Shown: in pieces, positions 226 to 33,675 of the stretch
Numbering within the stretch: position 1 is the stretch's first letter
Layout: each line of letters starts with the position of its first letter
UHGV virus genome: UHGV-0231292
Strand: one strand, 5' to 3'
DNA: 35,493 nt
Origin: a virus
Position numbers and translations under genes: made by a program
The notes under the pieces: model-generated
Told to the model about the DNA's origin: nothing
Databases searched by the model: none
What the model saw: the letters and a program-made list of their open reading frames with translations, nothing else

Positions 226-1227
226 TTACCCTCTATTGTCAAAAGGGTTCAATTCAACAGCAGCCTCTAAATGACCTGGAGCAAAATGCGCATAACGCAT
301 AGTCATTTTTATATCGCTATGCCCCAGTATTTTTTGCAACACAAGAATATTTCCGCCCCGCATCATAAAATGACTGGCAAACGTGTGACGTAGCACATGA
401 GTTAATTGCCCATCAGGAAGCTCGATCTTCGCTCTCTTAATTGCAGCGTCAAAAGCCTCATAACATGGTGAAAATAGCGCTCCTCGTTTTTGAGGAAGCA
501 TAGCCTGCAATTGAGGTGAAATCGGTACAGTGCGGTTCTTCTTTCCTTTAGTTTTAACAAATGTGATTCGACCGGGCAGTACTTGAGATTGCTTTAATCC
601 TTCAGCTTCACTCCACCGAGCACCAGTCGCAAGCCCAATACGGACAACAACCCCCAAATCTTTATTCCGTGACTCATCACACGCAATCAGAAGGCGTTCA
701 ATCTCATCTACATACAGAAACGCCAGTTCCTTTTCTTCCTCACGAAACTTGCGAATACCAGTCAGGGGGTTTTCACCAGACCACTCCCCAAGGCGCTTCA
801 GTTCGGCAAAAACAGCATGTAGATATGACTGCTCGCGATTAACGGTTGCTTCACTAAGTTTTTTCTTCCCCTTGGGATTCCATTCTCCTGATAGCCTTCT
901 TTCCCGATAAGTAGCAAACATATTTTTGTCAAACTGAGAAGCAAATGGATCCCCCAGCCTGGAACAAATCGCCTCAAGTTTGACTTTGCGCTCTGCACCA
1001 GAGGACAAGGTTTTACCGTACATCTCAAACCAACGAGCAATCAACTCAGAAAGACGAGGACCAGAACCATCTTGAAACTCGTCTCCAACTCTACTATTCA
1101 TTAAACGGCGCTCATAAGAGAGCGCCTCACTTTTTGTCGCAAACTGTTTACGAATGCGTTTTCCCGATGCCCCGTAGGGATAACATTCGCAAAGCCATTT
1201 ACCTGATGGAATCTTACGAACCGACAT
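226..1227 (-). CDS. int: Tyrosine recombinase / phage integrase
   Basis: 333 aa; C-terminal catalytic region HVLRHTFASHFMMRGGNILVLQKILGHSDIKMTMRYAHF (R..H-x-x-R..Y); adjacent to att core. Confidence 0.9.
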   Translation of the reverse strand: MSVRKIPSGKWLCECYPYGASGKRIRKQFATKSEALSYERRLMNSRVGDEFQDGSGPRLSELIARWFEMYGKTLSSGAERKVKLEAICSRLGDPFASQFDKNMFATYRERRLSGEWNPKGKKKLSEATVNREQSYLHAVFAELKRLGEWSGENPLTGIRKFREEEKELAFLYVDEIERLLIACDESRNKDLGVVVRIGLATGARWSEAEGLKQSQVLPGRITFVKTKGKKNRTVPISPQLQAMLPQKRGALFSPCYEAFDAAIKRAKIELPDGQLTHVLRHTFASHFMMRGGNILVLQKILGHSDIKMTMRYAHFAPGHLEAAVELNPFDNRG

Positions 1228-1609: not shown

Positions 1610-2260
1610 TTACAAATTAAAAAACACCCTAGAAATGGCACCGCCTACCAAAACCCCTACGCAGATAAAGAATATTATTTCTTTTGGATAAAGTCGGATT
1701 AATTCTGAAGCACGAAGTCGAACTTCTGGTAAGGCCGAACTCTCTGTGTGACTTGATGCCGATTGTTGCTCTAACCACGACAATGCAGACTGTAACTGAG
1801 AACGAGTAAGATCGTTTAAACGTCCTGTACCGAAATTGATATGGCAATACCGCAGAAGTTTTTGTCGAAGTCCACAGTCTTCACTGTTACGTAGTAATAA
1901 ACTTACAAGAGTCTTACAGGCATCATGATCTTTACATCGCTCAAGCATTGCATGCAGAAAACTCTCCGCTGTTTTATATTGATTTACTGTCATATCATCA
2001 ATACCAGCTACACCAATCTCCGCATGTACTTTTTGCCAAATAATAAACGCTTCAGTATTGCTAGCTTCTGCAATAGCAGCAACCAAGCTATTTAGCTCCT
2101 TACGCTGAGCCTTAAGCAAAGGGCGATCGTCATCATCATTATTCGAAGGGATTGCGATATTGACGGTATGAGAACCATCATATCGCTCTATCTGAATATT
2201 CTTTTCGTGAAAATCACGCCCAGCAACGCGATTGTTTGAACCGTTTGAGTTGACGGCCAT
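1610..2260 (-). CDS. Hypothetical protein with C-terminal membrane anchor (cargo); N-terminus shares a 16-residue motif with the repressor C-terminus
   Basis: 216 aa; C-terminal hydrophobic helix EIIFFICVGVLVGGAISRVFF; N-terminal NSNGSNNRVAGRDFHE resembles repressor tail NISGGNNRIAGRDYNE. Confidence 0.5.
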   Translation of the reverse strand: MAVNSNGSNNRVAGRDFHEKNIQIERYDGSHTVNIAIPSNNDDDDRPLLKAQRKELNSLVAAIAEASNTEAFIIWQKVHAEIGVAGIDDMTVNQYKTAESFLHAMLERCKDHDACKTLVSLLLRNSEDCGLRQKLLRYCHINFGTGRLNDLTRSQLQSALSWLEQQSASSHTESSALPEVRLRASELIRLYPKEIIFFICVGVLVGGAISRVFFNL

Positions 2261-4820: not shown

Positions 4821-5210
4821 ATGATTGACGCTCATGACTTCACAAGATGGGTGCGCACACAGGACCCCCGTCTGGCTCCCGTTCTTCAGGGATTATTTGA
4901 TCTCTACATCCGTGGTCGTGACAACAGAGCACGCACCACAAAACCGGAGAATGCAGACACCCTTTATTTCACAGTAGACGACTGCTACCGCGTGGACTTC
5001 ACACCACACGGGCTGGCGTTGCACTGCCTGACACCACACGGCGAATCACTGCTGGCGTATTACGACTCCCCGGCCTCCATATTTGCGGCAATGCTGGCGC
5101 ATCGCACTGCTGGCGGGTGTGCCTCGCTGAGTGAATACTCCGCTGAATTTAACCGCCTTTCCGCCCTCTTCTCACAGGAGTGGCAGCGCGTGACGGGATA
5201 CCAGCCATGA
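4821..5210 (+). CDS. Hypothetical early protein immediately upstream of A
   Basis: 129 aa ORF; its stop overlaps the A start (ATGA). Confidence 0.45.
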   Translation: MIDAHDFTRWVRTQDPRLAPVLQGLFDLYIRGRDNRARTTKPENADTLYFTVDDCYRVDFTPHGLALHCLTPHGESLLAYYDSPASIFAAMLAHRTAGGCASLSEYSAEFNRLSALFSQEWQRVTGYQP

Positions 5211-8047
5211 GTGCGTTTGCATGGAGCTGGAATGAACCACGGCCAGCCATTGATCCGGCCAGATTTACGGAGCGCAGGCAGGAAACTGAAACCGACCTGC
5301 AACGCGCCATCCGTTACTACCTTGAGGCAAACAAAAGGGCACAGGAAGAACAGGAAGCGAAGGAAGAAGCCTTTTTCGCACAATCCACCGTGGGTAAAAA
5401 ACTCATGGCATCCCTTGAGGAAGCCGGACAGCGTGAAAAGCTGGCACAAAGCATCATCAGCAAGCGTCAGGCAACAGAACAAGACCCGGTGGCCCGTGCT
5501 TTTGCCACACTGAAGGTGCTTCCCGTTTATCTGCGTGAACCTCTGAGCCGCCACCTCTCTTTTCTGCGCAAGAAGCAGGAAGCCGATCGTCAGAAAGGCA
5601 AAAAGAGCTGGCAGGCTGAACGCTACGCGCGCGGAACCCTGCGCAAAATATTCGAACGTCTGGACCGCACCGACAGCCGCTGGCTGACACCGGGCTATCG
5701 CTCCCTTGCCGGACGCGAACGCCTGGACGATTTGCTTTACCTGCCGCAGCTCAACAAACACCAGATACAGACGCTGGCCACCATGACGGCGGCGATGTTC
5801 AGTGGCACTTTTGAAAAACTCTGCGATGGCTTTGGCGCGACCGATGGCGAGCTGACCATGGATGTAACGCTGAAGGCGTATCAGATGCTGGCCCGCATGG
5901 CGTTACACCTGCACGCTATGCCTCCACATTATGACGCTCTGACAACAGACAAAGACCGGAGGAATGAACCGGACACGGAGCTGCTGCCGGGCGCAATCCT
6001 TCGCCTGACCTGTGCGGAATGGTGGAAACGCAAACTGTGGCTGTTACGTTGCGAGTGGAGAGAAGAACAACTCCGCGCCGCCTGTCTGGTTTCCAGAAAA
6101 ACATCACCCTATCTGAGCCAGGACGCGTTAAGCGAGTTTCGCGCACAGCGCGAGAAAACACGCGATTTCCTGAAAAGTTTCATGCTGGAAAACGAAGACG
6201 GGTTCACGATTGATCTCGAGACAGTGTATTACGCGGGAGTAAGTAACCCGATTCACCGTAAGGCAGAAATGATGGCCACCATGAAGGGGCTGGAACTTCT
6301 GGCCGAAGCCCGTGGCGACAGAGCGGTGTTTCTGACTGTCACCTGCCCGTCAAAATACCACGCCACAACAGAGAACGGTCATCCGAATCCCAAATGGAAC
6401 GGGGCCACCATGCGCGACTCCAGCGATTACCTGGTTAACACGTTTTTTGCGGCGGTCCGCAAGAAACTGAACCGCGACGGCCTGCGCTGGTATGGCATCC
6501 GCACGGTGGAGCCTCACCATGACGGCACCGTGCACTGGCATATGATGGTCTTTGCTCATCCGGAAGAAATCGACACCATTGTGTCCCACACCCGCGATAT
6601 TGCCATTCAGGAAGACCGCCACGAGCTGGGCAATGATATTACTCCGCGCTTTAAGGTGGAGTATGTCGACGGCTCAAAAGGCACGCCAACCAGCTACATC
6701 GCCACCTACATCGGAAAGAACCTGGACAGCCGCGCCGTGGATGGCATCGACCCGAAAACGGGCAAGCCACGCGTTGACCACGAAACCGGAAAATCAATGG
6801 CCGAGAGCGTGGAACGCGCCATCGGCTGGGCACGCCTTCACCGGGTCCGCCAGTTCCAGTTCTTTGGCATCCCCTCCCGTCAGGTATGGCGTGAACTCCG
6901 CCGCCTTGCCAGCCAGATGGCACGCAACCCGGAAGGCCCACAACGGCTGAAGGATGATGCAATGGATGCGGTACTCGCTGCCGCTGATGCCGGGTGTTTT
7001 GCCACCTACATTGAGAAACAGGGCGGCGTACTTGTTCCACGCAAAGACTACCTGATTCGCACCGCCTACGACCTCGCAGATGAGCTGAACGATTACGGCG
7101 AACAGAGCGTACAGATTTACGGGATCTGGTCACCACTCATCGGGGAATCCTCCCGTGTGTGCACGCACCCGGATAACTGGAAGCTAGTAAGACGTAAACC
7201 GGAAGCGGAAGACAGCACCCGCGAAAATGGTTTTGACCTTCAGGGCGGCCCTGCCGCCCCTTGGACTCGTGGCAATAACTGTCCCCGTGTACAGGAAACG
7301 GACAACAACGGGACAGAACAGCCGGAAGAAAGGCCAGCACCGTGGCCGCAGCTTCCTGACGGCGTTGACGTGAATGAATGGATGCGCTCACTGAAACGGC
7401 ACGAACGCCGGGCGCTGATGCGTTCGCTGCGTGACAAACAGGCAAAAAACAGCAGTGATGAAATGCAGAACTGGACACAGAGCCGCAAACAGCCACGGCC
7501 TTTGCCTGATAACCACGAGTTACTCGCTAAAGAATGGCGGGAGTCTGCTGAATCTCTCGGCCTGCATATCGGTGAACAGCAGATGCAGCACCTGTTACGG
7601 GGCGGCAGTCTGTACGTTGACGGCAGCATCATTGCACCGCAGGGATTTGAAATTGTACGCAAACCAGATACCCGCCCGGACAGCCGAATCACGCAACTCT
7701 GGCAGCGCCTGAGCCGTAATCACGGCGTAAGCAGCACGGAGATCCGCCATAACCCGGTCGCCAGCTATCTGGAACAGCTGGGGGCATCAGACCCCGAAGC
7801 CGCCGCACACCTGGCATCCACACTTCAGCAGGACCAGAACACCATGAAAACCCCCGTTACCGTGCTTTCTGACATGCTGCGCGCCATCCGTGACGCAGTG
7901 CACGCACAGAGAATCAGTGAAACCACTGAACGCGCCCACCGCAAAGCAGACCTGCTGCGGGGTAGCCTGACCAGTGGAAACAAAAAACAGACAGAAACGG
8001 GACTCACAAATCCCGTAAATGAGCAAAAAACGTGCCGCGATATATGA
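5207..8047 (+). CDS. A: Rolling-circle replication initiator (P2 gpA-like HUH endonuclease)
   Basis: HUH motif VHWHMMVF and paired tyrosines SYIATYIGKN (Y-x3-Y) as in phiX174/P2 A-type initiators; start set to the ATG at 5207 rather than the upstream GTG. Confidence 0.85.
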   Translation: MSAFAWSWNEPRPAIDPARFTERRQETETDLQRAIRYYLEANKRAQEEQEAKEEAFFAQSTVGKKLMASLEEAGQREKLAQSIISKRQATEQDPVARAFATLKVLPVYLREPLSRHLSFLRKKQEADRQKGKKSWQAERYARGTLRKIFERLDRTDSRWLTPGYRSLAGRERLDDLLYLPQLNKHQIQTLATMTAAMFSGTFEKLCDGFGATDGELTMDVTLKAYQMLARMALHLHAMPPHYDALTTDKDRRNEPDTELLPGAILRLTCAEWWKRKLWLLRCEWREEQLRAACLVSRKTSPYLSQDALSEFRAQREKTRDFLKSFMLENEDGFTIDLETVYYAGVSNPIHRKAEMMATMKGLELLAEARGDRAVFLTVTCPSKYHATTENGHPNPKWNGATMRDSSDYLVNTFFAAVRKKLNRDGLRWYGIRTVEPHHDGTVHWHMMVFAHPEEIDTIVSHTRDIAIQEDRHELGNDITPRFKVEYVDGSKGTPTSYIATYIGKNLDSRAVDGIDPKTGKPRVDHETGKSMAESVERAIGWARLHRVRQFQFFGIPSRQVWRELRRLASQMARNPEGPQRLKDDAMDAVLAAADAGCFATYIEKQGGVLVPRKDYLIRTAYDLADELNDYGEQSVQIYGIWSPLIGESSRVCTHPDNWKLVRRKPEAEDSTRENGFDLQGGPAAPWTRGNNCPRVQETDNNGTEQPEERPAPWPQLPDGVDVNEWMRSLKRHERRALMRSLRDKQAKNSSDEMQNWTQSRKQPRPLPDNHELLAKEWRESAESLGLHIGEQQMQHLLRGGSLYVDGSIIAPQGFEIVRKPDTRPDSRITQLWQRLSRNHGVSSTEIRHNPVASYLEQLGASDPEAAAHLASTLQQDQNTMKTPVTVLSDMLRAIRDAVHAQRISETTERAHRKADLLRGSLTSGNKKQTETGLTNPVNEQKTCRDI

Positions 8048-8123: not shown

Positions 8124-9083
8124 ATGAAAATTTGTATCGACGACGGCTCCACCAACATCAAGCTGGCATGGACTGAGAACGGCGAACGCCGCAACGCCAT
8201 CAGCCCGAACAGCTTCAAGTCGGAATGGTCTGCGCCGTTCGGTGGCACGCAGCCCGCGAACTACATGCTTGATGGCGTGCGCTATGGTTTTGATCCGGTC
8301 AGCGATCGCTTTGTCCAGACGACCGACACGCAATACCAGTACAGCGATGTGAATATAATTGCCATTCATCACGCGCTGGTCAAATCAGGCATCACACCAC
8401 AGGAAGTGGATGTGGTTGTCACCCTGCCACTGAGCGAGTATTTCGATACAAACGCACAGCCGGACATGGCCAACATCAACCGCAAAAAAGCGAACGTCAT
8501 GCGCCCGGTGGAGTACCAGAACGGCGAAGCATTCACTATCCGTAACGTACGGGTTATGCCTGAATCCATTCCGGCTGGCTTTAAGGCACTGGCTGACATG
8601 AGTCCGTTTGAATCCCTGCTGATTGTGGATTTGGGCGGAACCACTCTGGATGTGGCAAAGGTTCAGGGGCAACTGGCAGGTATCAGCCAGGTGTTTTGCG
8701 ATCCACACGTGGGCGTTTCTCTGATGGCCGATGCCGTACTGTCGGTGATGGCCACTAACGGTATGCGCACCAGTCACCACATCGCCAATACCATTATCGA
8801 ACATCGCCATGATGAAGCCTGGCTGCGCCAGCACATCCACAATGACGCGCATTACGCCAGCCTGATGGCGGTTATTCGTGAAAAGGAAGAAACACTGAAA
8901 CAACGCGTGATCCGCGCGCTGGCGGGTTTTTCGGGTTACGGGCGGGTGATGGTTGTCGGTGGAGGGGCGGAGATTGTGGCACCCGCTATCCGCGAAGCCT
9001 GCGGAGTTAATGCGACTTTCATCGCGGACGGGGTGCCACAGTTTGCTCTGGTTAATGGGCTGTACGCAATGGACAAGGAGTAA
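8124..9083 (+). CDS. parM: Actin-like segregation ATPase (ParM/StbA family)
   Basis: 319 aa; hallmark motifs IDDGSTNIKL, YSDVN, VMPESIPAG, DLGGTTLD, VVGGGAE, LVNGLY match ParM/StbA as recalled. Confidence 0.75.
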   Translation: MKICIDDGSTNIKLAWTENGERRNAISPNSFKSEWSAPFGGTQPANYMLDGVRYGFDPVSDRFVQTTDTQYQYSDVNIIAIHHALVKSGITPQEVDVVVTLPLSEYFDTNAQPDMANINRKKANVMRPVEYQNGEAFTIRNVRVMPESIPAGFKALADMSPFESLLIVDLGGTTLDVAKVQGQLAGISQVFCDPHVGVSLMADAVLSVMATNGMRTSHHIANTIIEHRHDEAWLRQHIHNDAHYASLMAVIREKEETLKQRVIRALAGFSGYGRVMVVGGGAEIVAPAIREACGVNATFIADGVPQFALVNGLYAMDKE

Positions 9084-21758: not shown

Positions 21759-24518
21759 ATGAGCACGAAATTTAAAACCGTTATCACTACTGCCGGAGCC
21801 GCAAAGCTGGCAGCCGCCACTGTCCCCGGCGGGAAAAAAGTAACCCTGTCTGCAATGGCCGTGGGTGACGGTAATGGCAAATTGCCAGTGCCGGATGCCG
21901 GTCAGACGAAACTGGTGCATGAGGTCTGGCGTCACGCTCTGAATAAAGTCAGCGTGGATAATAAGAATAAAAACTATATCGTGGCTGAACTGGTTGTACC
22001 GCCCGAAGTGGGCGGCTTCTGGATGCGTGAGCTTGGTCTGTATGACGATGCCGGAACACTGATTGCGGTATCCAATATGGCAGAAAGCTATAAGCCAGAA
22101 CTGGCTGAAGGCTCCGGACGTGCGCAGACCTGCCGCATGGTCATTATTGTCAGTAACGTGGCGTCCGTTGAGCTGAGTATTGATGCCAGCACAGTGATGG
22201 CGACGCAGGATTACGTCGATAACAAAATCGCAGAACATGAGCAGTCCCGCCGCCATCCTGACGCCACGCTGACAGAAAAAGGTTTTACTCAGTTAAGCAG
22301 TGCAACAAACAGCACCAGTGAAAGGCTGGCAGCAACGCCAAAGGCAGTAAAAGCAGCCTATGACAATGCTGAAAAACGTATGCAGAAAGACCAGAACGGT
22401 GGCGATATTCCAGATAAGGACGCTTTTCTGGGCAATGTTGGCGTTACCAGCCTGACGTTTATGAAAAACAATGGCGAAATGCCGCTTGATGCTGATCTGA
22501 ATACATTTGGTCCCGTTAAGGCTTATCTGGGGATCTGGTCTAAAGCTACCTCAACTAACGCAACACTGGAGAAAAATTTCCCGGAAGATAATGCTGTCGG
22601 TGTGCTTGAGGTTTTTGCTGCCGGCAATTTTGCAGGTACGCAACGCTTCACCACGAGAGACGGCAATGTATACATACGCAGACTCGCCAATAAGTGGAAT
22701 GGCTCTGATGGTCCGTGGGGCATATGGCGTCACACTCAATCAGCTACCCGCCCTTTGAGTACGACTATAGACCTGAATACGCTTGGAGCCGCCGAGCATC
22801 TTGGTTTATGGCGTAACAGTAGCTCGGCTATAGCTTCATATGAACGCAATTATCCAGAGGAAGGCGGCTTTGCTCAGGGGACGCTTGAGATCCTCGAAGG
22901 CGGGAATTATGGAAGAACGCAACGTTATACCACTCGCCGTGGAAATATGTACGTCCGCTGCCTTGCGGCAAGCTGGGATGCATCAAATCCGCAGTGGGAA
23001 CCGTGGTTAAGAGTCGGTCATCAGTCAGAGAGTCGTTATTACGACGGGGATTTGAATGATGTGACTTCACCAGGTATTTACAGCGTTACAGGTAAAGCGA
23101 CCAACGGTCCAATACTGGACGGAAACGGCGTGACAGTCCTCGGTATTCTGGAAGTGTTGAGGCGCTTTGATGGTGTTAACGTATGGCAGCGTTATACAAC
23201 TGCCGGAACAGGTACAACCCTTAAAGGTCGCACGTTTGAACGCGTTTTTACCGGCAGCTCATGGAGCGAATGGCGGGAAGTTTACACATCTTATTCACTT
23301 CCCCTGAATCTGGGCATCGGTGGCGCAGTGGCAAAACTATCCAGTCTGGACTGGCAGACCTACGATTTTGTGCCGGGCAGTCTGATAACCGTTCGGCTGG
23401 ATAATATGACCAATATTCCCGACGGTATGGACTGGGGCGTCATTGATGGCAACCTGATAAACATCGCAGTTGGTCCGAGTGATGATTCCGGTACGGGGCG
23501 CTCAATGCATGTATGGCGCAGCACTGTAAGTAAAGCGAACTACCGATTTTTTATGGTGCGTATTTCAGGAAATCCGGGAAGCCGCACGATCACAGCAAGA
23601 CGAGTACCAATCATTGACGAAGCCCAGACATGGGGCGCGAAACAGACATTCAGTGCTGGCCTTTCTGGTGAACTGTCCGGCAATGCGGCGACAGCAACAA
23701 AGCTGAAAACAGCCCGTAAAATTAATAACGTTTCGTTTGATGGAACATCAGATATTAACCTGACGCCGAAAAATATTGGTGCATTTGCCTCAGGAAAAAC
23801 AGGAGACACCGTTGCGAATGATAAAGCCGTTGGGTGGAACTGGAGTAGCGGAGCCTATAACGCAACTACTGGTGGGGCATCAACGTTAATTCTTCATTTT
23901 AATATCGGTGAAGGAAGTTGTCCCGCCGCCCAGTTCCGCGTTAATTATAAGAACGGCGGTATTTTTTATCGTTCTGCTCGTGACGGTTACGGATTCGAGG
24001 CTGACTGGTCTGAGTTTTATACCACAACGCGAAAACCTACAGCGGGAGATGTCGGTGCACTGCCGTTATCTGGTGGTCAATTGAATGGTGCTCTGGGTAT
24101 AGGAACATCCAGTGCTCTTGGCGGTAATTCGATTGTTTTGGGTGATAATGACACGGGCTTTAAACAAAATGGTGATGGTAATCTGGATGTTTATGCTAAT
24201 AGCGTCCATATTATGCGCTTTGTCTCGGGAAGTATTCAAAGTAATAAAACCATAAATATTACGGGGCGTGTTAATCCCTCGGATTACGGTAACTTTGATT
24301 CCCGCTATGTCCGGGATATCCGGCTTGGTGGTGCTGCCACATACAAACCTGCGAACAATGGCATGACATGGACACATCAGGCACCGTCCGGGTGTGTATA
24401 TTCCGGCATTATTGTTCAGGATACCGGCTCAAACTCTGCCGATAACATTGGTGGTGTATATTACAGGCCGGTTCAGAAATACATTAACGGGACATGGTAT
24501 AACGTGGCGCAGGTATAA
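21759..24518 (+). CDS. H: Tail fibre protein (P2 gpH-like) with a triplicated central domain and divergent C-terminus
   Basis: 919 aa; conserved N-terminus MSTKFKTVITTAGAAKLAAATVPGGKKV...; three tandem ~90-aa repeats between residues ~244 and 510. Confidence 0.85.
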   Translation: MSTKFKTVITTAGAAKLAAATVPGGKKVTLSAMAVGDGNGKLPVPDAGQTKLVHEVWRHALNKVSVDNKNKNYIVAELVVPPEVGGFWMRELGLYDDAGTLIAVSNMAESYKPELAEGSGRAQTCRMVIIVSNVASVELSIDASTVMATQDYVDNKIAEHEQSRRHPDATLTEKGFTQLSSATNSTSERLAATPKAVKAAYDNAEKRMQKDQNGGDIPDKDAFLGNVGVTSLTFMKNNGEMPLDADLNTFGPVKAYLGIWSKATSTNATLEKNFPEDNAVGVLEVFAAGNFAGTQRFTTRDGNVYIRRLANKWNGSDGPWGIWRHTQSATRPLSTTIDLNTLGAAEHLGLWRNSSSAIASYERNYPEEGGFAQGTLEILEGGNYGRTQRYTTRRGNMYVRCLAASWDASNPQWEPWLRVGHQSESRYYDGDLNDVTSPGIYSVTGKATNGPILDGNGVTVLGILEVLRRFDGVNVWQRYTTAGTGTTLKGRTFERVFTGSSWSEWREVYTSYSLPLNLGIGGAVAKLSSLDWQTYDFVPGSLITVRLDNMTNIPDGMDWGVIDGNLINIAVGPSDDSGTGRSMHVWRSTVSKANYRFFMVRISGNPGSRTITARRVPIIDEAQTWGAKQTFSAGLSGELSGNAATATKLKTARKINNVSFDGTSDINLTPKNIGAFASGKTGDTVANDKAVGWNWSSGAYNATTGGASTLILHFNIGEGSCPAAQFRVNYKNGGIFYRSARDGYGFEADWSEFYTTTRKPTAGDVGALPLSGGQLNGALGIGTSSALGGNSIVLGDNDTGFKQNGDGNLDVYANSVHIMRFVSGSIQSNKTINITGRVNPSDYGNFDSRYVRDIRLGGAATYKPANNGMTWTHQAPSGCVYSGIIVQDTGSNSADNIGGVYYRPVQKYINGTWYNVAQV

Positions 24519-24521
24519 TTT

Positions 24522-25049
24522 ATGCAGCATTTAAAAAATATTACGGCGGGTAATCCAAAAACGGTTGAACAATATCAATTGACAAAAGACTTTGATGTTG
24601 TCTGGTTTTTTTCAGAAGATGGTAAGAACTGGTACGAAGAACAAAAGTATTTTGCTGATGACACGCTAAAAATAGCGTACGACAAAGATAATATCATCCG
24701 CTATGTGGAAAAGGATGTGACAGCTATCAGACCGGATGGATTAAGTGTTGTTGAAGTGGCGGATATTACTGCTAACCGACGGGCGGACATTTCAGGGAAC
24801 TGGATGTTTAAGGACGGTACAGTGATTAAACGCATTTATACGGCAGAGGAATTGCTGCAGCAGGCAGAAAACCGGAAAGCCAGACTTCTTGCAGATGCTG
24901 AATCCGTGATTTTGCCACTGGAGCGCGCTGTCAGGCTGAACATGGCAACAGATGAGGAGCGTAGCCGACTGGAAGCATGGGAACGCTACAGTGTTCTGGT
25001 CAGCCGTGTGGATACGGCAAATCCCGAATGGCCACAAAAGCCTGAGTAA
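24522..25049 (+). CDS. G: Tail fibre assembly chaperone (P2 gpG-like)
   Basis: 175 aa; immediately downstream of H; AT-richer codon usage typical of the exchangeable fibre module. Confidence 0.75.
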
Positions 25050-25263
25050 AAATTAAGCTCCGATATCGGGCCTTCTCTCATTCTGGTTGTTCGGGAAACG
25101 TTACTGGCAGGCCGGAGGTGTCTGTGGATTCGACTTTCTACGCGTAGAGCATCCACTCGGTTAATTTTTGTTTATTCTCGTCGGAAATGATGTCCAGCCG
25201 TAGCTGTGAGTCCCATAGGCGATATACAGGCCGAAGAAACAACCAGGCAGATCAAGGAAAAAG

Positions 25264-25295
25264 AAAACCGCTAATCTGACCATTAGCGGTTTTTG
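25264..25295. terminator. Bidirectional terminator between convergent G (+) and U (-)
   Basis: AAACCGCTAAT-CTGACC-ATTAGCGGTTTTT: 9-bp stem flanked by A-run and T-run. Confidence 0.6.
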
Positions 25296-25302
25296 TGTTA
25301 AA

Positions 25303-25797
25303 TCAGAACAGCCCTTTAACTGAACTGGCCGCGCTGTTAAGAGATGATGTCACCTTATCTTTGAAGCCGGACAGCATATCGCTGAATGATGAGGATTGCA
25401 GGCGCTCCCGCAAATCCTCATCACAGCGTTCAAGGGTCAGTGAAAATTCTATCTTTTTCGCCTTACCGTAGCGATCAAACTCGGAACGGGTCGTATTCGT
25501 TCCGGTCAGGACATACATGCCGTAAATCTGCCCGACGCCATCAATAAGAGGCCAGGGGCGTCCTGTATACGCCTGCGTGGTCAGCAGCGACAGCGACACT
25601 TCGCCACCTGTAATTTCAGGATAAAGCACACCAGAAAGAACGATGCGATCATCACCTGCACCGATATACTGCCAGCTTGCTGAACGGTTAACGCGTTCAT
25701 TTTTCACATGCCGCCAGCTTTTGTTTTGCTGTAACTGCTGATGCGGCAGCGTGCGCAGCTCAAAAACAAACATGCCGTAGATCATCATCATGGCCAT
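25303..25797 (-). CDS. U: Tail protein (P2 gpU-like)
   Basis: 164 aa; SWRHV, GGDD..ISG, ITGG, WPLIDG, IYGMYVLT match gpU. Confidence 0.8.
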   Translation of the reverse strand: MAMMMIYGMFVFELRTLPHQQLQQNKSWRHVKNERVNRSASWQYIGAGDDRIVLSGVLYPEITGGEVSLSLLTTQAYTGRPWPLIDGVGQIYGMYVLTGTNTTRSEFDRYGKAKKIEFSLTLERCDEDLRERLQSSSFSDMLSGFKDKVTSSLNSAASSVKGLF

Positions 25798-25803
25798 GAC
25801 TCC

Positions 25804-28647
25804 TCAATCTTTATCGTAAAAACTGCCACGCCCGGCACGGGCGCGCCGTTCCATTTCTGCCCTGACCATTTCACCGACCAGTTTCGCCAGTTCGCGGGGA
25901 TTCTGCGTAACAACGTTATGCAGATGAACATGAATTTCACCGCCAAATCCGGAGGCAACAGGCTCCCGGTTACGGGAAGTTGCAGGAACTGATGCCACTG
26001 GCGATCGTATGGCCTCCGCCACCGGGCGGGAGCTGGCCGCAACAACAGGGACCAGCGCCGGAGGCAGCGGAGCCGGAACCACGGGTGTGATATTAATTGA
26101 GGGGGCAGGCTTACTGACCTGCGCAATCTTCCGCTCCTGCCACTCCCCACGAACAGCAAGTGCGCGGGGCAGGTTCTTAAAGACAATATCGCCGGGGCCA
26201 ATGCGTTTTTTCGTCTCATCAACCAGCTTACCTGTGTTATCAGCAATTTTGCTGAGTCTGCGTAGCGTCCCGGTATTGCTGTCTGTGAGCGGTTTATTGT
26301 CTTTGGGTTTATCACCTCCGGTGCCATTGCCATTTTCCACAGGCTTCGGCGGATTGATTTTCGCCAGGTCCCCCTGAAGCAAGGCAACCTTGTCCTGAAG
26401 AATGGCCGCACGCTGTGCGTCTTCGATTCTCTTTCTCGCCCTTTCCGCTTCATCCGGAAGAACACCGAGTTTTTCAAGTATCCACGCCAGCGTATCCAGC
26501 AACATTTTTGCAGGCGTCAGAACAAGCTGTAACGCGCCACCAAGAACGTTACCGAATATCTCGCCAGCACTGGTACATTTATCCAGTGTTTCCTTGCTGG
26601 ACTCCATTGGTGACAGCAGCGATTTAAACCAGTTAAACACCTGGCCGATCCCGCTCCCGATTGCGTCAAAAACAGGGCCAAACCGTTCAAAGGTTTCGCG
26701 CAACGGGGTCAGCCTTTCCATAATCCCGCTGAACACCCCAGCATAAAACGCCTTGATGGGCTCCCAGTATTTCCAGATGAGAACCGCCGCAGCCACAAAC
26801 GCAGCAGCAATCAATCCGACCGGACTGAACAGCGCCCCGATAGCGCCTCCCAGTAAAGAAACGGAACCCGTCACCATTCCCCATAGCGCTGGCAGGACCC
26901 TGACAGCATTCATTGATCCGGTCAGAAGAGAAAAACCAAGACGCAGTTTTGCCAGCGGGCCAGCAAGCACACCAATAGCCAGCGACAACGAGCCAACCGT
27001 TGCAGTCATTGCCAGCAACGCACCGCCTGCTATCAGTAGCTGGCGCGTCAGTACCGGATGGGCCTGCGCCAGCGCAGTCACCTTTGATACCACCCGCGTG
27101 AGCCACTGCGTGACAGAACGCAGTGGACCGTCAATCAGATCTGCAATGCGGATGCGCAACCCTTCCCATGCACTGCCGAGTGATTTCAGATCGCCGTCAA
27201 GGTTGTTGGCCATAACCTTTGCCGTGCGTTCAGCCTCACCGCGCGCGCCTTCAAGTTCTTTTCTCAGTTTGGGTAAGGAGCCGTCACCTGCCGCATCAAC
27301 GAGGGCCATAAATGATGTGAAAGCCTCTTCTCCGGCAATGTCCTTAAAGAACGATACCCGGTCAACTTCCCCGTATTTGCGGGTGGCTTTATAAAGGTCG
27401 GCCAGCACATCTTCCATCGGGCGCATTTTGCCCCCGGCATCCGAGACAGACGCGCCCAGCTCTTTCAGCGCTTCTGCTGCCGCCTTTGGCGGTGATGCCA
27501 GACGAGCCAGGCTGGCACGCATTGCCGTCCCGGCATCACTCCCTCTGATACCCATATTCGCCAGCACGCCCGCCATCGCTGCGGCCTGCTCCAGCGATAT
27601 TCCCAGCTTACCCGCCACCGGACCTGCATATTTCATGGTTTCGCCCAGCGCGCGAAGGTCAGTGTTGGTACGGGTAAACGCTGCTGTAAGCGTGTCACCG
27701 ACCCGGTCCATCTGGTCAGCGGAGAGGCCGAACTGCGTCAGGATGTTTGAGCCAATATCTGCCGTCTCGCCGAGATCCATACCGCCAGCCGTTGCCATGC
27801 TCAGCACTCCGGGAAGCGCAGCCTGAATGGCCTGCGGTGTGAAGCCTGCCATTGCAAGAAATGCCTGCCCACTGGCGGCATCGCCTGCGGTGAACTGCGT
27901 TTCAGAGCCAAGTTTTAACGCCTGCTCACGCAGCGCCTTAAACTGCGGGCTGTTCTGGTCGATTCGCGTCAGCGCCTGAACGCGGGACATCTCTTTGCCG
28001 AACCCGATCGCGGGCTGCAAAAAACGCCCGGCAGCATAGCCGCCCGCCGCTGCCGCACCAATTGCCAGCGCACCACCTGTTTTCAGTTTTCCCGCGGTTT
28101 CCTGCGCGCGCGAATACCACTCACGCGCCCGCGTTACACGCGCAAGCGCCTGCCGTTCGCGTTCAAGCTGGTTGTTGTACTGTTCGGTGCGTCTGATGGC
28201 CTGCTGGATGGTGTTATCGCTGCCTGTCAGGGAAATGCCGTGGCGTTTCAGCTCTCCGCCAAGCTCCCGCATTTTCTGAATTTCCCGTGTGCGCGATTCA
28301 TTCAGGCGTTCAAGCCGGGTGCTTAACTGCTGCATCAGCTTTTGTTGTTTTTCGCTGAGCACTGTACCCGTGCGTTGTAACTGATTAAGGGCGTTAAGCT
28401 GGCGTCGTGCTTTCACGATACCCGCATCCGCTTTACTGACAGCGTCGCGGGCGCGCTCAAATGAACGAGCCTGACGCTCGAGATTTTTAATCGCCCCCTG
28501 CGTTCGCTGGATGGAGTCACCAAACTGCCCCATCAGGCGGCGGGCGTTTTCGGCAGGCCGGGTCAGCCTGTCAACGGCGCTGAAAGCGACCCGGATATCA
28601 AGAGTCTTCATTGTCTGCATTCCCGCTGCGAAGTGCCGCCCGCTCAC
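25804..28647 (-). CDS. T: Tail tape measure protein (P2 gpT-like)
   Basis: 947 aa; long coiled-coil N-terminal part, Gly/Ala-rich central TM-like stretches, position after E/E'. Confidence 0.85.
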   Translation of the reverse strand: MSGRHFAAGMQTMKTLDIRVAFSAVDRLTRPAENARRLMGQFGDSIQRTQGAIKNLERQARSFERARDAVSKADAGIVKARRQLNALNQLQRTGTVLSEKQQKLMQQLSTRLERLNESRTREIQKMRELGGELKRHGISLTGSDNTIQQAIRRTEQYNNQLERERQALARVTRAREWYSRAQETAGKLKTGGALAIGAAAAGGYAAGRFLQPAIGFGKEMSRVQALTRIDQNSPQFKALREQALKLGSETQFTAGDAASGQAFLAMAGFTPQAIQAALPGVLSMATAGGMDLGETADIGSNILTQFGLSADQMDRVGDTLTAAFTRTNTDLRALGETMKYAGPVAGKLGISLEQAAAMAGVLANMGIRGSDAGTAMRASLARLASPPKAAAEALKELGASVSDAGGKMRPMEDVLADLYKATRKYGEVDRVSFFKDIAGEEAFTSFMALVDAAGDGSLPKLRKELEGARGEAERTAKVMANNLDGDLKSLGSAWEGLRIRIADLIDGPLRSVTQWLTRVVSKVTALAQAHPVLTRQLLIAGGALLAMTATVGSLSLAIGVLAGPLAKLRLGFSLLTGSMNAVRVLPALWGMVTGSVSLLGGAIGALFSPVGLIAAAFVAAAVLIWKYWEPIKAFYAGVFSGIMERLTPLRETFERFGPVFDAIGSGIGQVFNWFKSLLSPMESSKETLDKCTSAGEIFGNVLGGALQLVLTPAKMLLDTLAWILEKLGVLPDEAERARKRIEDAQRAAILQDKVALLQGDLAKINPPKPVENGNGTGGDKPKDNKPLTDSNTGTLRRLSKIADNTGKLVDETKKRIGPGDIVFKNLPRALAVRGEWQERKIAQVSKPAPSINITPVVPAPLPPALVPVVAASSRPVAEAIRSPVASVPATSRNREPVASGFGGEIHVHLHNVVTQNPRELAKLVGEMVRAEMERRARAGRGSFYDKD

Positions 28648-28816
28648 GCCAGCTAACCACTTCGCCGGGCGTCATCATGAAGATTTCGGCGGGCGACCAG
28701 TTAAAAATAACGGCAATATCTGCCACAAAGTCTTCTATGTGCTCAAAGCACACAACCGTGATCAGGCTTCCGTCGCCTGTTCGTTCTTCCCGCCAGAGTC
28801 CGCACCGCTCAAAAAA
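28598..28816 (-). CDS. E': E' extension made by programmed -1 frameshift (E+E' fusion; tail assembly chaperone pair)
   Basis: Slippery heptamer T_TTT_TTG on the minus strand at plus coords 28810-28816 inside E; the -1 frame stays open to 28598. Confidence 0.6.
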   Translation of the reverse strand, partial: FFERCGLWREERTGDGSLITVVCFEHIEDFVADIAVIFNWSPAEIFMMTPGEVVSWRERAALRSGNADNEDS

Positions 28817-29127
28817 TTTACGGCAACCACACATAACTGAATAAAGTCACGGGATGCCATTTTTTTGATCGTCACTTCATCCAGTCGCGGTGATGTCACG
28901 CGTGACAGCAGCGTAAACATGGATTCCGCTTTCAGATTCAGCACATCAGACAGCGACAAATCTCGCAGAGATCCAGCCTGCTCAATAGCCCCGGTGATCT
29001 CCACATACGTGATTTTTTCGCCGCCTCGCTCAATTGGTTGGGTAAGTTTTACACCACGCTCACTGGTTTCTTTCACAGTGTCAGCAACTACCGTGTTTTC
29101 GGTATCGATGTTTTTCGTCTCTTTCAT
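28762..29127 (-). CDS. E: Tail assembly chaperone (P2 gpE-like)
   Basis: 121 aa; ends ...VVAVNFLSGADS spanning the slippery site; located between tail tube and tape measure. Confidence 0.75.
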   Translation of the reverse strand: MKETKNIDTENTVVADTVKETSERGVKLTQPIERGGEKITYVEITGAIEQAGSLRDLSLSDVLNLKAESMFTLLSRVTSPRLDEVTIKKMASRDFIQLCVVAVNFLSGADSGGKNEQATEA

Positions 29128-29181
29128 CAGGAAACTCCTTTCAGTCAGAGGCGACGCACTGCGCCGCCTGCATATTACTTA

Positions 29182-29694
29182 TCAGCCAAGCCCGAGCGCG
29201 GAACGGATGCGATCGGGCACAATGTCCTTGCCGTCCTTCCGGTAAATGAAGTTCAGCAGGTCAATCTCCCACAACGGGCGATCGTTAACACTCAGCTTGT
29301 AGTAGGTGTTTTTAATGGCGTAAGTGTGTGATGTAGCTTCGCCCTGTTTGGCTTCCCCCATATCAATTTCCGTCACACGTCCGCGCATTTCGACTTCATA
29401 CAGGTCGCTTTCTGCATCGGTGTAATATTCACCCGCAAAACGCAGCAGCGTGCCGTCAATCGTGCCGCCATACTTAAGGAACAGCTCACGAACTGCGCCC
29501 CCCATGACAAAGCTCGCATCAAGCGCGGAGTCGTCCAGACCGAGATCAATACTTACCGCACCCATCATGCCACCACCCCGGTAGCTGTCGGTTTTGCGCG
29601 TCAGCTTAGGCAGAGTGACGGACGTCACCTTACCCACTTCGTTTTCACCATCCACAAACAGCGTAAAAAAGCGAAGATGTTTTGGTACAGCCAT
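29182..29694 (-). CDS. FII: Tail tube protein (P2 gpFII-like)
   Basis: 170 aa; GKVTSVTLPKLTRKTDSYRGGGMMGAVSIDLGLDDSAL, RFAGEY, VEMRGR match FII. Confidence 0.85.
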   Translation of the reverse strand: MAVPKHLRFFTLFVDGENEVGKVTSVTLPKLTRKTDSYRGGGMMGAVSIDLGLDDSALDASFVMGGAVRELFLKYGGTIDGTLLRFAGEYYTDAESDLYEVEMRGRVTEIDMGEAKQGEATSHTYAIKNTYYKLSVNDRPLWEIDLLNFIYRKDGKDIVPDRIRSALGLG

Positions 29695-30878
29695 CAGGCA
29701 CCTCCCAGCACCGCAAATGCGGGTTCAAAGTATTCATCAGTAAACGTCTGGTAAAGCTCCATGTCTTCCAGTGGCGGAACGGGCGTATATTTGTAGCGAA
29801 TACGCACACGCCCCTGACGTAAATCCGTGGTGCTGTTATCCACCACGTCATACCAGCACTCCGCGCCAATCAGTTTCCCGGCAGTAACCAGCGAATCCAG
29901 TTTTGCCCTGATGGCACTGATAACATCCTTCACGTTCGCAGGCGTCAGTGGACTGTCGATGGTTTCAAACTGCGCTTCCGCAATTGAATCAGCCAGCACC
30001 TGTGCGGTTCGGGTATACACCTCAAAGATGTAGGCGTTCGTTTCCGGTGTGCGGTTGCCCCAGAAGCGGAACCCGTTGCGACGAATAATGGTCGTGATTT
30101 CTTTGTTGTTGAGGCTGTTGGCATCACTGTCTTCGGCCTGCAACGACCAGAAAACATGCCTGGACATCCCCAGCACATTTTTAACAGGAACGTTGGACAG
30201 CGATTTGTGCCAGCCCTGCTCATGGTCAATGTACGCACGAAGGCCGCACGCATAGGCAGGCGCGGGGAACGTTTCGTTTTTGCCACTTTTCGGGTTGTAG
30301 GCGATGAAGTCCGGCCATAAGAGCATCACCTCACGTTCGTTGAATTTCTGGCGGTAGGTAATTGCCTCAGCCATCGTGTTACAGTCATGACATGAGGCAT
30401 ACACAAACGCGCGCAGTTTACCCGCAATCACGCACAGGGATTTTGTCACCGCCTCCGTGTCCAGCTCCGGCGCGGCCAGAATACGCGGACGGTATCCGAT
30501 GCTTTCATCCTGCTCTGCAACAAGCAGCGCATACATCCCCGTATAGCTGCCGTCAGATTCAGAACCACCGATAACCAGTTGATCCTGCGTCTTACCGCCT
30601 TCTTCTTTGTGTTCAGCCACGCGAACGACGATCACTTTTGTGCTCACCTGGTCTGCAATAGCCTTAAGCGCACGATAAAGCGTCCCCGTAGTCCCGCATT
30701 TTCCCAGCACGTCATTGACGCGGGTCAGCAGTGTGGGCTTGTTCAGCGGGAACAGCTCCGCGTCCGCATCATCCGCCGTTGCCACGATACCGATAACACT
30801 GGAATCAACATCATTAATCGCTGTTACCAGGTCGGTACTTTCCGTAACACGGGCACCATGAAAACGAGTTTCACTCAT
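29694..30878 (-). CDS. FI: Contractile tail sheath protein (P2 gpFI-like)
   Basis: 394 aa; TADDADAELFPLNKP, QGWHKSLSNV, IRRNGFRFWGNRT, YKYTPVPPLE match FI. Confidence 0.9.
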   Translation of the reverse strand: MSETRFHGARVTESTDLVTAINDVDSSVIGIVATADDADAELFPLNKPTLLTRVNDVLGKCGTTGTLYRALKAIADQVSTKVIVVRVAEHKEEGGKTQDQLVIGGSESDGSYTGMYALLVAEQDESIGYRPRILAAPELDTEAVTKSLCVIAGKLRAFVYASCHDCNTMAEAITYRQKFNEREVMLLWPDFIAYNPKSGKNETFPAPAYACGLRAYIDHEQGWHKSLSNVPVKNVLGMSRHVFWSLQAEDSDANSLNNKEITTIIRRNGFRFWGNRTPETNAYIFEVYTRTAQVLADSIAEAQFETIDSPLTPANVKDVISAIRAKLDSLVTAGKLIGAECWYDVVDNSTTDLRQGRVRIRYKYTPVPPLEDMELYQTFTDEYFEPAFAVLGGA

Positions 30879-31035
30879 AGCTTCAGCCCCTTGTATCCGT
30901 TAAATGATTCGGCAACAATCATCACCCACCACGCGCGTAATCTCACCCCTGCGCCGTTCTCCCGCCACGGCGACAACAAAAAGCAGTAACCCCCTATGCA
31001 CGCACATGCGACCATGCCGCACAGGGAGGGAACAG
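30879..31035. promoter_or_regulatory. Divergent intergenic region between FI (-) and D (+); presumed late promoter(s)
   Basis: 157 bp between divergent starts with RBS on both sides; contains CCTTGTATC similar to CCTTTGTATC in the P/O region; no canonical TGT-N12-ACA seen. Confidence 0.35.
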
Positions 31036-32136
31036 ATGACCGATACCACCATGCAATTGCTCAGTCAGAGCACAGACCCCGTGAAAATGCCGGATTTTGA
31101 TATTCTCGCGGAGGGGGAAACACTGTCCAGCGTGGCAGAGCGCCTGATGAGCCTGTCACTGACCGACAACCGGGGATTTGAAGCGGACCTGCTCACCATC
31201 ACGCTGGATGATGCGGATGGTCAGTTGCAGCTACCGCCACGGGGCGCGCGCCTGACGGTTCTCATTGGCTGGAAAGGAGAACCGCTGACAGAAAAAGGCA
31301 CTTACATTGTTGATGAAATCGCTCACGAAGGACCGCCGGACAGGCTGACTGTTTCAGCCAGAAGCGCAGATTTTCGGGATGAATTTAACGTTAAACGTGA
31401 GGTGTCCTGGCATGATGTGACCGTTGAGCGCGTGGTATCCGCCATCGCTCATCGGTACGGTCTGAAACCACAAATCAGCGAAATGCTGATGGATATTGAA
31501 ATCGACCACGCCGACCAGACCGAAGAAAGCGACATGTCCTTCCTTACGCGCATGGCGGAAATGCTGGGCGCAATCACTACGGTAAAAAGCAGTAATCTGT
31601 TATTCATCATGCCAGGCGGTGGCGTGAACGCACAGGGCCAGCCGTTGCCATCGTTCGCCATCACGCGCAGCAGTGGCGATCGCCATCAGTTCCGCATTGC
31701 TGACCGCGAAGCGTATACGGGGGTACGTGCTTACTGGCTTGATCTTAATTACGGGAAAAAGAAAAAAGTCAGCGTGAAACGCCGCAAACCGAAAAAGGAG
31801 AAAAGCAGCAGCCGTGAAGGTGACTATATGGAAGGTGCGGAAGGCAACGTGTTTGTGTTACGCAAGACTTATCAGAACGAGCAGGCAGCAAGACGTGCAG
31901 CGGCGGCAAAGTGGCAGCAGCTACAACGCGGAGCCGCATCATTCTCCATCACGCTGGCGCGTGGACGCGCAGAACTCTATCCCGAAATGCATGGCACGGT
32001 GACAGGCTTCAAAAGTGACATCGATAATCAGGACTGGATTATTGCAAAAGCCGAGCACACCATTGATAACAGCGGCTTTACCACACAGCTTGAGCTTGAA
32101 GCAAAAATCCCGGAATGGATAGCAGAAACAGAATGA
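31036..32136 (+). CDS. D: Late control / tail protein D (P2 gpD-like)
   Basis: Start at the ATG after GGGAGGG; LTDNRGFEADLLTITLDDADGQLQLPPRGA, SARSADFR, WHD, basic KKKKVSVKRRKPKKEK stretch, GFTTQLELE match gpD. Confidence 0.85.
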   Translation: MTDTTMQLLSQSTDPVKMPDFDILAEGETLSSVAERLMSLSLTDNRGFEADLLTITLDDADGQLQLPPRGARLTVLIGWKGEPLTEKGTYIVDEIAHEGPPDRLTVSARSADFRDEFNVKREVSWHDVTVERVVSAIAHRYGLKPQISEMLMDIEIDHADQTEESDMSFLTRMAEMLGAITTVKSSNLLFIMPGGGVNAQGQPLPSFAITRSSGDRHQFRIADREAYTGVRAYWLDLNYGKKKKVSVKRRKPKKEKSSSREGDYMEGAEGNVFVLRKTYQNEQAARRAAAAKWQQLQRGAASFSITLARGRAELYPEMHGTVTGFKSDIDNQDWIIAKAEHTIDNSGFTTQLELEAKIPEWIAETE

Positions 32137-32535: not shown

Positions 32536-33675
32536 GTGGGAAACAATAAAGTGAAATTAGGAAGAAATGATAAGTGCTGGTGTAATTCAGGACTTAAGTA
32601 TAAAAAGTGCCATCTTGGTCGAGATCGTGAAACTCCGGTATCCAAAGCCGAGGCACTGAAATTTTCAAAGTCTCTCTCGCAGAGAAAGGCATGTTATGCG
32701 CCAGCATCCATGCACGAAGATTGTGATAAACGCATCGTTCAGGCGCATACGATATCTAAGAGCAGTAGCCTTAAGGCGATCGCCGACTCCAGCAATCACG
32801 TCATGGGGGTGATAATGAACTTAGCAAGCCTGATGAGAAACAACGGAAAATGGCTTCCCGAGAAGATCGGTATCAATCAGGCATCCACTTTTACAGGATT
32901 TTGTGCAGTTCATGACAGAATCTTATTTTCATGCCTAGAGAACGAAAAATTTACAGGCACGGACGAGCAGTGCTTTGCCTTAATGTTTCGTTCATTGTCT
33001 AAAGAAATTTATGCCAAAGAAGGGGGAGTGCTATCTTCTGATTTTGCTAAAAATGCCGATAAAGGAAAGCTACAAGTTGAACAGTATTATATTCAGAAAT
33101 TAATCGACCAGCACCAAAGTGGCTTAAATGCAGCAATAATTGAATTAAATAATCTTAAAACTAGCCTCGACCGCATCCTACTTAGCAGGCAATTTTCAGA
33201 AATTGAAAGTGTTATCTTCACTTTTGCAGAGCCTTTACCAATTGTAGTTTCGTCAATTCTTTCACCGGAGAGGGATTTCGATGGGACCAAAATTCAGGAT
33301 TTGAGCGATCTTACAGTGTCGGCGGAACAAGTATGTTTCAATGCTTTTTCCTGCGGAGGTAAGGGATATGTAGTGTTCAGTTGGCTGAGAACTTCAACAA
33401 TTATCAGACGTTTTATACGGACACTAATTAAGATCCCAGCTAACAGGATGTTCAATACCCTTCTGTATTTTTTCTTCACAAAGGCCGAAAATACATATTC
33501 ATCCCCTGAGTGGTGGGACAGGCTCAGTGATAAACAGCGAGAGAATATCGGCAACATGATTATGTCAGGGGTTGAATTTTTTGGCAGACCTACATCACAG
33601 GTTGATCATTCCGTTGATTATAACGCCGCTGCACTTGAAGAGATAACATGCAGCAACAACGAAATTTGCAGCTGA
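32536..33675 (+). CDS. SEC-C metal-binding-motif protein of unknown function in an AT-rich island
   Basis: 379 aa; N-terminal CWCNSGLKYKKCH matches the SecA/YecA SEC-C zinc motif (C-x-C-x8-C-H); non-ATG start (GTG at 32536 or 32551); AT-rich versus flanking phage genes. Confidence 0.55.
   Translation: MGNNKVKLGRNDKCWCNSGLKYKKCHLGRDRETPVSKAEALKFSKSLSQRKACYAPASMHEDCDKRIVQAHTISKSSSLKAIADSSNHVMGVIMNLASLMRNNGKWLPEKIGINQASTFTGFCAVHDRILFSCLENEKFTGTDEQCFALMFRSLSKEIYAKEGGVLSSDFAKNADKGKLQVEQYYIQKLIDQHQSGLNAAIIELNNLKTSLDRILLSRQFSEIESVIFTFAEPLPIVVSSILSPERDFDGTKIQDLSDLTVSAEQVCFNAFSCGGKGYVVFSWLRTSTIIRRFIRTLIKIPANRMFNTLLYFFFTKAENTYSSPEWWDRLSDKQRENIGNMIMSGVEFFGRPTSQVDHSVDYNAAALEEITCSNNEICS

Follow-up and report, generated by a model that had tools for sequence, protein, structure and literature searches.

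Background

Descriptions of fibre segments shared among P2 H, T-even gp37 and Mu S date back to the 1990s. The tail fibre gene H described here belongs to this setting, and the three repeats in its middle are an ordinary part of a mosaic tail fibre gene.

The closest described systems are the fibres of the R-type pyocins, which carry globular domains known as knobs. In the pyocin knob fold, five or six strands linked by loops make up an antiparallel beta-sheet; in the homotrimer the sheets lie buried around the threefold axis and the loops point outwards (Buth et al. 2018, PMC6116203). Binding of cell-surface saccharides by pyocin knobs has been proposed, and Knob2, the most diverse region of the R-type pyocins, may outweigh the C-terminal domain in determining the killing spectrum (Buth et al. 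2018, PMC6116203). The same authors include phi11 gp45, T4 gp34 and AS12 gp42 among the knob-like proteins, and in K1F endosialidase a knob-like prism binds sialic acid (PMC6116203).

Knobs are also found in the tailocin fibres of Pseudomonas syringae, which according to the authors have little amino-acid similarity to the R2 pyocin fibre. Whole-knob deletions shorten these fibres, and low identity is concentrated in their more distal knobs (PMC12208367). The 'Pyocin knob' has been classified as a mobile pseudo-domain present in six fibre classes (RBPseg, PMC12143355). There are therefore published accounts of the domain itself, of its occurrence in tandem, of its movement between fibre classes and of the gain and loss of whole knobs. 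Here we investigate the repeats of a temperate phage tail fibre in the light of these systems.

Results and Discussion

The tail fibre gene and its neighbours

The window, which is the whole stretch of DNA that was analysed, comprises 35,493 nucleotides of the virus genome UHGV-0231292. Its tail fibre gene H and the features discussed below are listed in Table 1. The nearest nucleotide matches of H are the tail fibre gene of Peduovirus P24C9 and those of phages 10W and 11W, which are 98.4% identical over the full length. H follows the baseplate genes J and I and precedes a tail-fibre assembly gene, the product of which is 72% identical to P2 gpG. The genes flanking H are in the same order as in P88-like phages. 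An inversion of the cluster from tail sheath to gpU relative to P2 was considered and rejected, as this arrangement is normal for P88-like (Xuanwuvirus) phages.

Table 1. Features of the tail fibre region, with positions in the window
Feature	Coordinates	Strand	Residues of H	Remarks
Tail fibre gene H	21759..24518	+		919 aa; single 919-codon ORF
N-terminal baseplate-attachment (tail-collar) domain and one 'phage tail fibre repeat'	21759..22388	+	1-210	Pfam PF12571, PF03406
Module common to T-even gp37	22434..23822	+	226-688	K1, K2, K3 and the following domain
Knob K1	22488..22733	+	244-325	hmmsearch domain; family-wide HMM 3e-23; 45% identity to K2
Knob K2	22764..23015	+	336-419	hmmsearch domain; family-wide HMM 9e-23
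Knob K3	23043..23285	+	429-509	hmmsearch domain; family-wide HMM 2e-19; most diverged copy
Conserved domain after the knobs	23301..23633	+	515-625	54-71% identical in T6 gp37, P0045 and P0046
C-terminal part of H	23772..24515	+	672-919	phmmer against PDB sequences; Pfam gp37_C
Tail-fibre assembly chaperone gpG/Tfa	24522..25049	+		175 aa; directly downstream of H; Pfam Caudo_TAP E 1.8e-34

At its N-terminus H matches Pfam Phage_tail_fib (PF12571) over residues 1-151 (E 1.6e-57), followed by Phage_fiber_2, the 'phage tail fibre repeat', over residues 170-210. Towards the other end, gp37_C matches residues 679-754. When the whole protein was compared with PDB sequences by phmmer, its C-terminus was found to resemble the Mu tail fibre S/S' (8ju3_A, E 5.5e-70, residues 672-768 and 846-917), with further matches to 5yvq_A and to the 'short tail fiber' 9cuy_c (residues 850-916). 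The tail-collar domain, gp37_C and the assembly protein encoded downstream show that the label 'tail fibre H', given in the initial annotation, is correct. Judged from these alignments and those of the middle region, H is a three-part mosaic, with a P2-type N-terminus, a middle like that of T-even gp37 and a C-terminus like Mu S/S'.

Three tandem repeats in the middle of H

The initial annotation described three tandem domain repeats of about 90 residues between positions 22488 and 23289, which correspond to residues 244-510 of H. This is confirmed, and the repeat motifs quoted there are present in H as written. The repeats have a period of 92-93 residues, each consisting of a domain of about 82 residues and separated from the next by a linker of 9-10 residues. 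BLASTP of the whole protein against itself returned the identity match only; comparison segment by segment revealed the repeats. K1 and K2 are 45% identical over 80 residues (BLASTP). Their Smith-Waterman score of 190 compares with 26.6 +/- 4.9 for 2000 shuffled sequences (z = 33), none of which reached the observed value, and the profiles of their orthologues align with an hhalign E value of 2.7e-24. No repeat-like segment was detected elsewhere in H, where the best local scores of 32-34 are at background level.

The repeats are pyocin knob domains

Residues 244-509 of H are very probably three consecutive pyocin knob domains, mainly structural in function and forming an old triplet that moves as a fixed block. 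The first line of evidence comes from profile searches. A profile made from twelve single repeats (alignment A2) was compared with PDB sequences and found the fibres of the R1 pyocin (6cl5_A, E 2.3e-7) and the R2 pyocin (6cl6_A, E 5.2e-6), together with 6ct8_A (E 5.7e-5). The main match, at chain positions of about 139-211, is consistent with Knob2 (445-528; the constructs start at 323), and a weak second match is consistent with Knob1. Homology to the R1 and R2 knobs is thus found with the repeat profile. A profile of K3 only falls short of this; it found nothing significant among PDB sequences and did not reach the pyocin fibres, its top match being the phi812 receptor-binding protein (E 0.12).

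The second line of evidence is the predicted fold. An AlphaFold2 (AF2) monomer model of residues 226-520, of moderate confidence (pLDDT 71), shows the same strand order three times, and the AF2 models predict five or six strands per repeat. In a Foldseek search with this model the top PDB matches were 6cl5_A and 6cl6_A (E ~1e-6), followed by the receptor-binding proteins of the Staphylococcus phages phi812, phi11 and P68. The third repeat was also modelled alone. The AF2 monomer model of residues 418-515 has a pLDDT of 82 and a pTM of 0.74, and its top structural matches are again the pyocin fibres, 6cl6_A (TM 0.68, rmsd 3.6 A) and 6cl5_A (TM 0.60), with phi812, NF5, phi11, T4 gp34 and the AS12 gp42 tailspike lower in the list. 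Both the triplet and K3 alone are therefore predicted to have the knob fold.

The location also agrees. Pyocin knobs are found in receptor-binding fibres or spikes, often in tandem, and in H there are tandem copies in a protein that has a tail-collar domain, a gp37_C domain and an adjacent Tfa gene. The known pyocin knob domain went unrecognised in the initial annotation. None of the Pfam and NCBIfam models matches the repeats, even at E <= 10 or E <= 1, and the phmmer comparison of whole H with PDB sequences matched its N-proximal and C-terminal parts (Mu S, short tail fibre) and left the repeats unmatched. We base the family assignment on profile and fold searches of our own, together with NCBI protein names, in which fragments identical or nearly identical to H are called 'pyocin knob domain-containing protein'.

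A module shared with T-even gp37

The similarity of H to T-even fibres extends well beyond the knobs. Residues 226-688 of H align with residues 105-562 of T6 gp37 at 55% identity over 465 residues (BLASTP, E 9e-175). The homology is collinear and lies in the N-proximal third to half of gp37. All three knobs occur in T6 gp37 in the order seen in H, at 123-205, 215-299 and 308-390, and the domain that follows them is also shared. The two fibres differ at both ends. The N-terminus of T-even gp37 binds gp36, whereas that of H is of the baseplate-binding P2 type, and the C-terminal tip and the chaperone/adhesin system of the T-even phages are unlike those of H.

By tblastn, the knob block of 295 residues is about 61% identical in the distal long-tail-fibre subunit of T6, RB14, RB32, T4_ev240 and many other T-even phages. 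Of the 229 phage records that match the knob block, 178 do so at 60-80% identity, and the matches listed in that band are T-even phages. The block is present in phages of E. coli, Shigella and Yersinia. On the strength of these alignments, residues 226-688 are a module that temperate P2/P88-like phages and virulent T-even phages exchange.

The domain that follows the knobs accompanies K3 in T6 gp37, P0045 and P0046, and no Pfam model matches it. Is there a fourth, cryptic knob in residues 511-640? This was rejected by sequence, the hhalign E values against the knob profiles being 0.04-0.31 over short aligned stretches.

Structural nodes or receptor-binding domains?

What might the knobs do in this fibre? 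As judged from the pyocin structures, at each level the three chains would each contribute one knob around the fibre axis, the sheets being packed inside and the loops exposed to the solvent. With such a trimer geometry the triplet would form three globular beads in mid-fibre. The most likely job of the knobs would be to nucleate and register the folding of the trimer, and they would provide a defined length of fibre that separates the P2-type attachment domain (residues 1-225) from the Mu S/gp37-like C-terminus (residues 672-919). This C-terminal part would be the receptor-binding part of the fibre, and the downstream Tfa chaperone presumably assists its folding. The initial annotation had placed the repeats in the fibre shaft. 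They are better described as globular knob domains than as shaft repeats in the strict sense.

The knobs do not vary to the same extent among homologues. K2 is the most conserved and K3 the most variable. In P0043 the identity to the knobs of H is 93% for K1, 100% for K2 and 74% for K3, and in P24A7b H and T6 gp37 the identity in K3 is 46-48%. In the alignment of K3 orthologues most invariant columns coincide with the DLN motif or a predicted strand, and few or none fall within the segments 444-461, 482-491 and 498-503. Conserved strands with variable loops fit the pyocin knob picture.

This variability could be taken to mean that the knobs, and K3 above all, are the primary receptor-binding determinants of host range and not mainly structural nodes. 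The diversity of Knob2 in the pyocins and its proposed part in the killing spectrum (Buth et al., PMC6116203), the binding of sialic acid by the knob-like prism of K1F endosialidase (PMC6116203) and the concentration of low identity in the more distal knobs of P. syringae tailocins (PMC12208367) would all agree with such a role. We nevertheless regard it as doubtful. The same K1-K2-K3 block stands before unrelated C-termini in P0043, P0044, T6 gp37 and P0046, it spans phages of E. coli, Shigella and Yersinia, and H retains a C-terminal domain of the Mu S/gp37 type together with a dedicated Tfa chaperone. One block before varied C-termini, and in phages of several hosts, suggests a scaffold module ahead of an exchangeable tip.

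We therefore favour the reading that the knobs are most likely, chiefly, structural nodes of the fibre that form trimers. An accessory role of K3 in glycan binding is plausible alongside this, as K3 is the most variable knob and its variation lies mainly in loops; it could provide an accessory site for surface polysaccharide like that proposed for pyocin Knob2. Both the structural and the accessory-binding role are drawn from the pyocin and K1F endosialidase literature. A more specific proposal is that K3 acts as a functional second binding site for a glycan (LPS core or O-antigen) and orients the fibre together with the C-terminal tip, which we consider unlikely. If it were true, the exchange of the K1-K2-K3 cassette between P2/P88-like and T-even phages would carry part of the host-range information. 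Such a reading would in any case be a mere extension to E. coli phages of the proposal made for the R-type pyocins.

Copy number and age of the triplet

The knob family is large, with 1788 clusters (at 50% identity) matching at E <= 1e-3. In the best 150 of these 1788 clusters there are between one and eight knob copies per protein, most often three, and successive copies are back-to-back in 90%. Each of the close relatives of H that were examined has three knobs (P0042, P0043, P24A7b H, P0047, T6 gp37, P0045 and P0046). In relatives that are 50-65% identical to K1 and K2 the number differs, with two knobs in P0048 and six in P0041. The block is present in 395 of 5426 complete E. coli genomes, in 275 of them at a coverage of at least 80%.

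Seen within its lineage, the triplet is an ancient duplication that now moves as a fixed block inside the larger module of residues 226-688. The knobs of H are 69% (K1), 71% (K2) and 48% (K3) identical to their counterparts in T6 gp37, compared with at most 45% between neighbouring copies. At the DNA level the copies of H match each other only over 16-24 nucleotides, imperfectly, at the QRYTT and DLNT motifs. The duplications are taken to be old because the counterparts in T6 gp37 are closer than the neighbours and there are no long DNA repeats. A recent duplication, and long DNA repeats as substrates for recombination, were accordingly rejected.

The initial annotation had suggested that the copy number of the domain can change and thereby alter the length and reach of the fibre. 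For the family this holds, as seen from its range of copy numbers, from P0048 and P0041, and from the whole-knob deletions known in tailocin fibres (PMC12208367); for the lineage of H, in which all close relatives have three, it does not. It is correspondingly very improbable that the repeats of H are an actively expanding and contracting tandem array, in which recombination between copies tunes the length of the fibre. The observations on the family at large would allow this reading, but the short and imperfect DNA matches, the divergence between the copies (K1 and K2 at 45%, K3 and K1 at about 27%), the closer relationship of each knob to its T6 gp37 counterpart, the exact number of three in all close relatives and the block being present as such in those 275 E. 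coli genomes all argue against it.

The third copy

K3 had been described as the most diverged copy, and this is so. At about 27% identity to K1 its pairwise scores are marginal, with 27 of 2000 shuffled sequences reaching the observed score against K1 and 119 of 2000 against K2. When profiles are compared by hhalign, K3 aligns with K1 at E 9.4e-5 and with K2 at E 2.7e-4, and the order of the motifs is shared. All three copies match identical positions in the profiles phrog_6614 and phrog_3971. The family-wide HMM used for Table 1 was built again on 483 domains from 150 representative, unrelated proteins, so that the value for K3 is a score against domains of other proteins. Despite its marginal pairwise scores, K3 is thus confirmed as a true repeat by four independent lines, the hhalign alignments, the PHROG positions, the family-wide HMM and the structure model of K3. 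That K1 and K2 are the sole true repeats, with the likeness of the third segment due to chance or composition, would suit the shuffling results and the K3-only profile, which has no significant PDB sequence match, but has a negligible probability given the hhalign values and common motif order, the HMM score of 2e-19, the shared PHROG positions and the pyocin knobs as top structural matches of the K3 model.

Significance

The value of these results lies mainly in correct annotation, that is, in a fibre gene recognised as a three-part mosaic with exact domain boundaries. These boundaries could be used as cut points for chimeric fibres or retargeted tailocins, and in its variability K3 offers a testable hint of a second binding site. 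The missing model for these knob repeats is a small gap in both the Pfam and the NCBIfam libraries.

Comparison with known fibres

Canonical P2 gpH (NC_001895, 669 aa) has the same position in the gene order, with gpG next. Its residues 1-204 are 85% identical to the N-terminus of H, and its last 150 or so residues are related (39%), aligning with residues 770-919 of H. The middle of P2 gpH is unrelated to that of H, and only residues 1-204 and 770-919 of H align with it; canonical P2 gpH has no knob domain, the best domain E value being 0.65-0.74. H is therefore not an orthologue of P2 gpH over its whole length. Among P2-like fibres the knobs are all-or-nothing, since the block is exchanged in one piece, as a module.

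The tailocin fibres of P. syringae are like H in having several internal knobs, with whole knobs as the units of gain and loss and the distal knobs the most variable. They differ in being built of three repeats of a shaft and two knobs (PMC12208367).

The fibres of the R1 and R2 pyocins are the closest in organisation. Their Knob1 and Knob2 (6CL5, 6CL6; PMC6116203) are the same domain as the repeats of H by profile and predicted fold, and are likewise in tandem with short linkers. They sit midway along a trimeric fibre of a P2-like contractile tail, flanked by a baseplate-binding N-terminus on one side and a C-terminal binding domain on the other, and in both systems the most variable knob is the distal one. 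However, there are two knobs in the pyocin fibres and three in H, and the identity is only about 15-20%. Beyond the knobs, the pyocin fibres continue with an iron-containing shaft and a lectin-like foot, whereas H continues with the domain of residues 515-625 and a C-terminus of the Mu S/gp37 type.

Origin of the prophage and its fibre gene

Taken as a whole, the prophage (window 10500-32200) is an Escherichia coli P88-like (Xuanwuvirus) prophage. Is the tail fibre gene H of the same origin as its neighbours? The structural genes flanking it share 95–98% identity with PhiR44_2, P88, 520873 and Xuanwuvirus P884B11, and Peduovirus is absent from their best ten matches, its 12 records all ranking lower. 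H itself, however, matches its counterpart in the Peduovirus phage P24C9 from end to end, with 98.4% identity. This disparity suggests that the fibre cassette has recently moved between the two genera.

Features of the window
Feature	Coordinates	Strand	Remarks
Integrase	226-1227		
216-aa ORF	1610-2260	-	No Pfam match
Replication gene A homologue	5180-8047		Adjoins ParM/StbA-type gene
ParM/StbA-type actin-like segregation protein	8124-9083	+	Complete; Pfam StbA_N (E 3.7e-82), ParM_N (E 1.3e-68)
H, tail fibre	21759-24518	+	
Conserved domain of H, residues 515-625	23301-23633		~110 aa
Gap between gpG and next gene	25050-25303		
Tail sheath, tube, tape-measure and gpU-like genes	25303-30878	-	Tape-measure 947 aa
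gpD-like gene	30904-32136	+	
379-aa ORF	32536-33675	+	N-terminal SEC-C motif, sole match

The domain following the knobs

Immediately C-terminal to K3, the third of the tandem pyocin knob domains of H, is a conserved domain that accompanies the knobs in gp37 of T6, the distal subunit of the long tail fibre, and in the homologous proteins P0045 and P0046, with identities of 54–71%. No Pfam family matches it, and no resemblance to the knobs could be detected. A distant relative, P0041 (1300 aa), has six knobs in two separate triplets, at residues 199-493 and 705-993, and behind each triplet comes a non-knob domain, the two being alike. It therefore seems likely that in P0041 the three knobs and the following domain were duplicated together as a whole unit, rather than as single knobs.

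Other genes of the window

Both the 379-aa and the 216-aa ORFs, possible accessory or moron genes, are in low-GC stretches of the window (GC 0.39–0.44). The ParM/StbA-type gene is unusual cargo in an integrating P2-like phage.

Comparison with related phages

In P88 (KP063541.1), P884B11 and Citrobacter phage Shae_phiSM, a DNA invertase and extra fibre and assembly genes are present between the fibre and tail genes, and the match of the window to these phages breaks into two pieces at this point. Unlike P88, the window has a gap of just 254 nt between gpG, the tail-fibre assembly chaperone gene, and its downstream neighbour, and so the invertible fibre switch is missing. The strand layout also differs from that of P2 and P24C9: in the window, the sheath, tube, tape-measure and gpU-like genes run in the opposite direction to those for the baseplate and fibre. 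Among the P88-like phages, this opposite-strand arrangement of tail genes is the normal layout.
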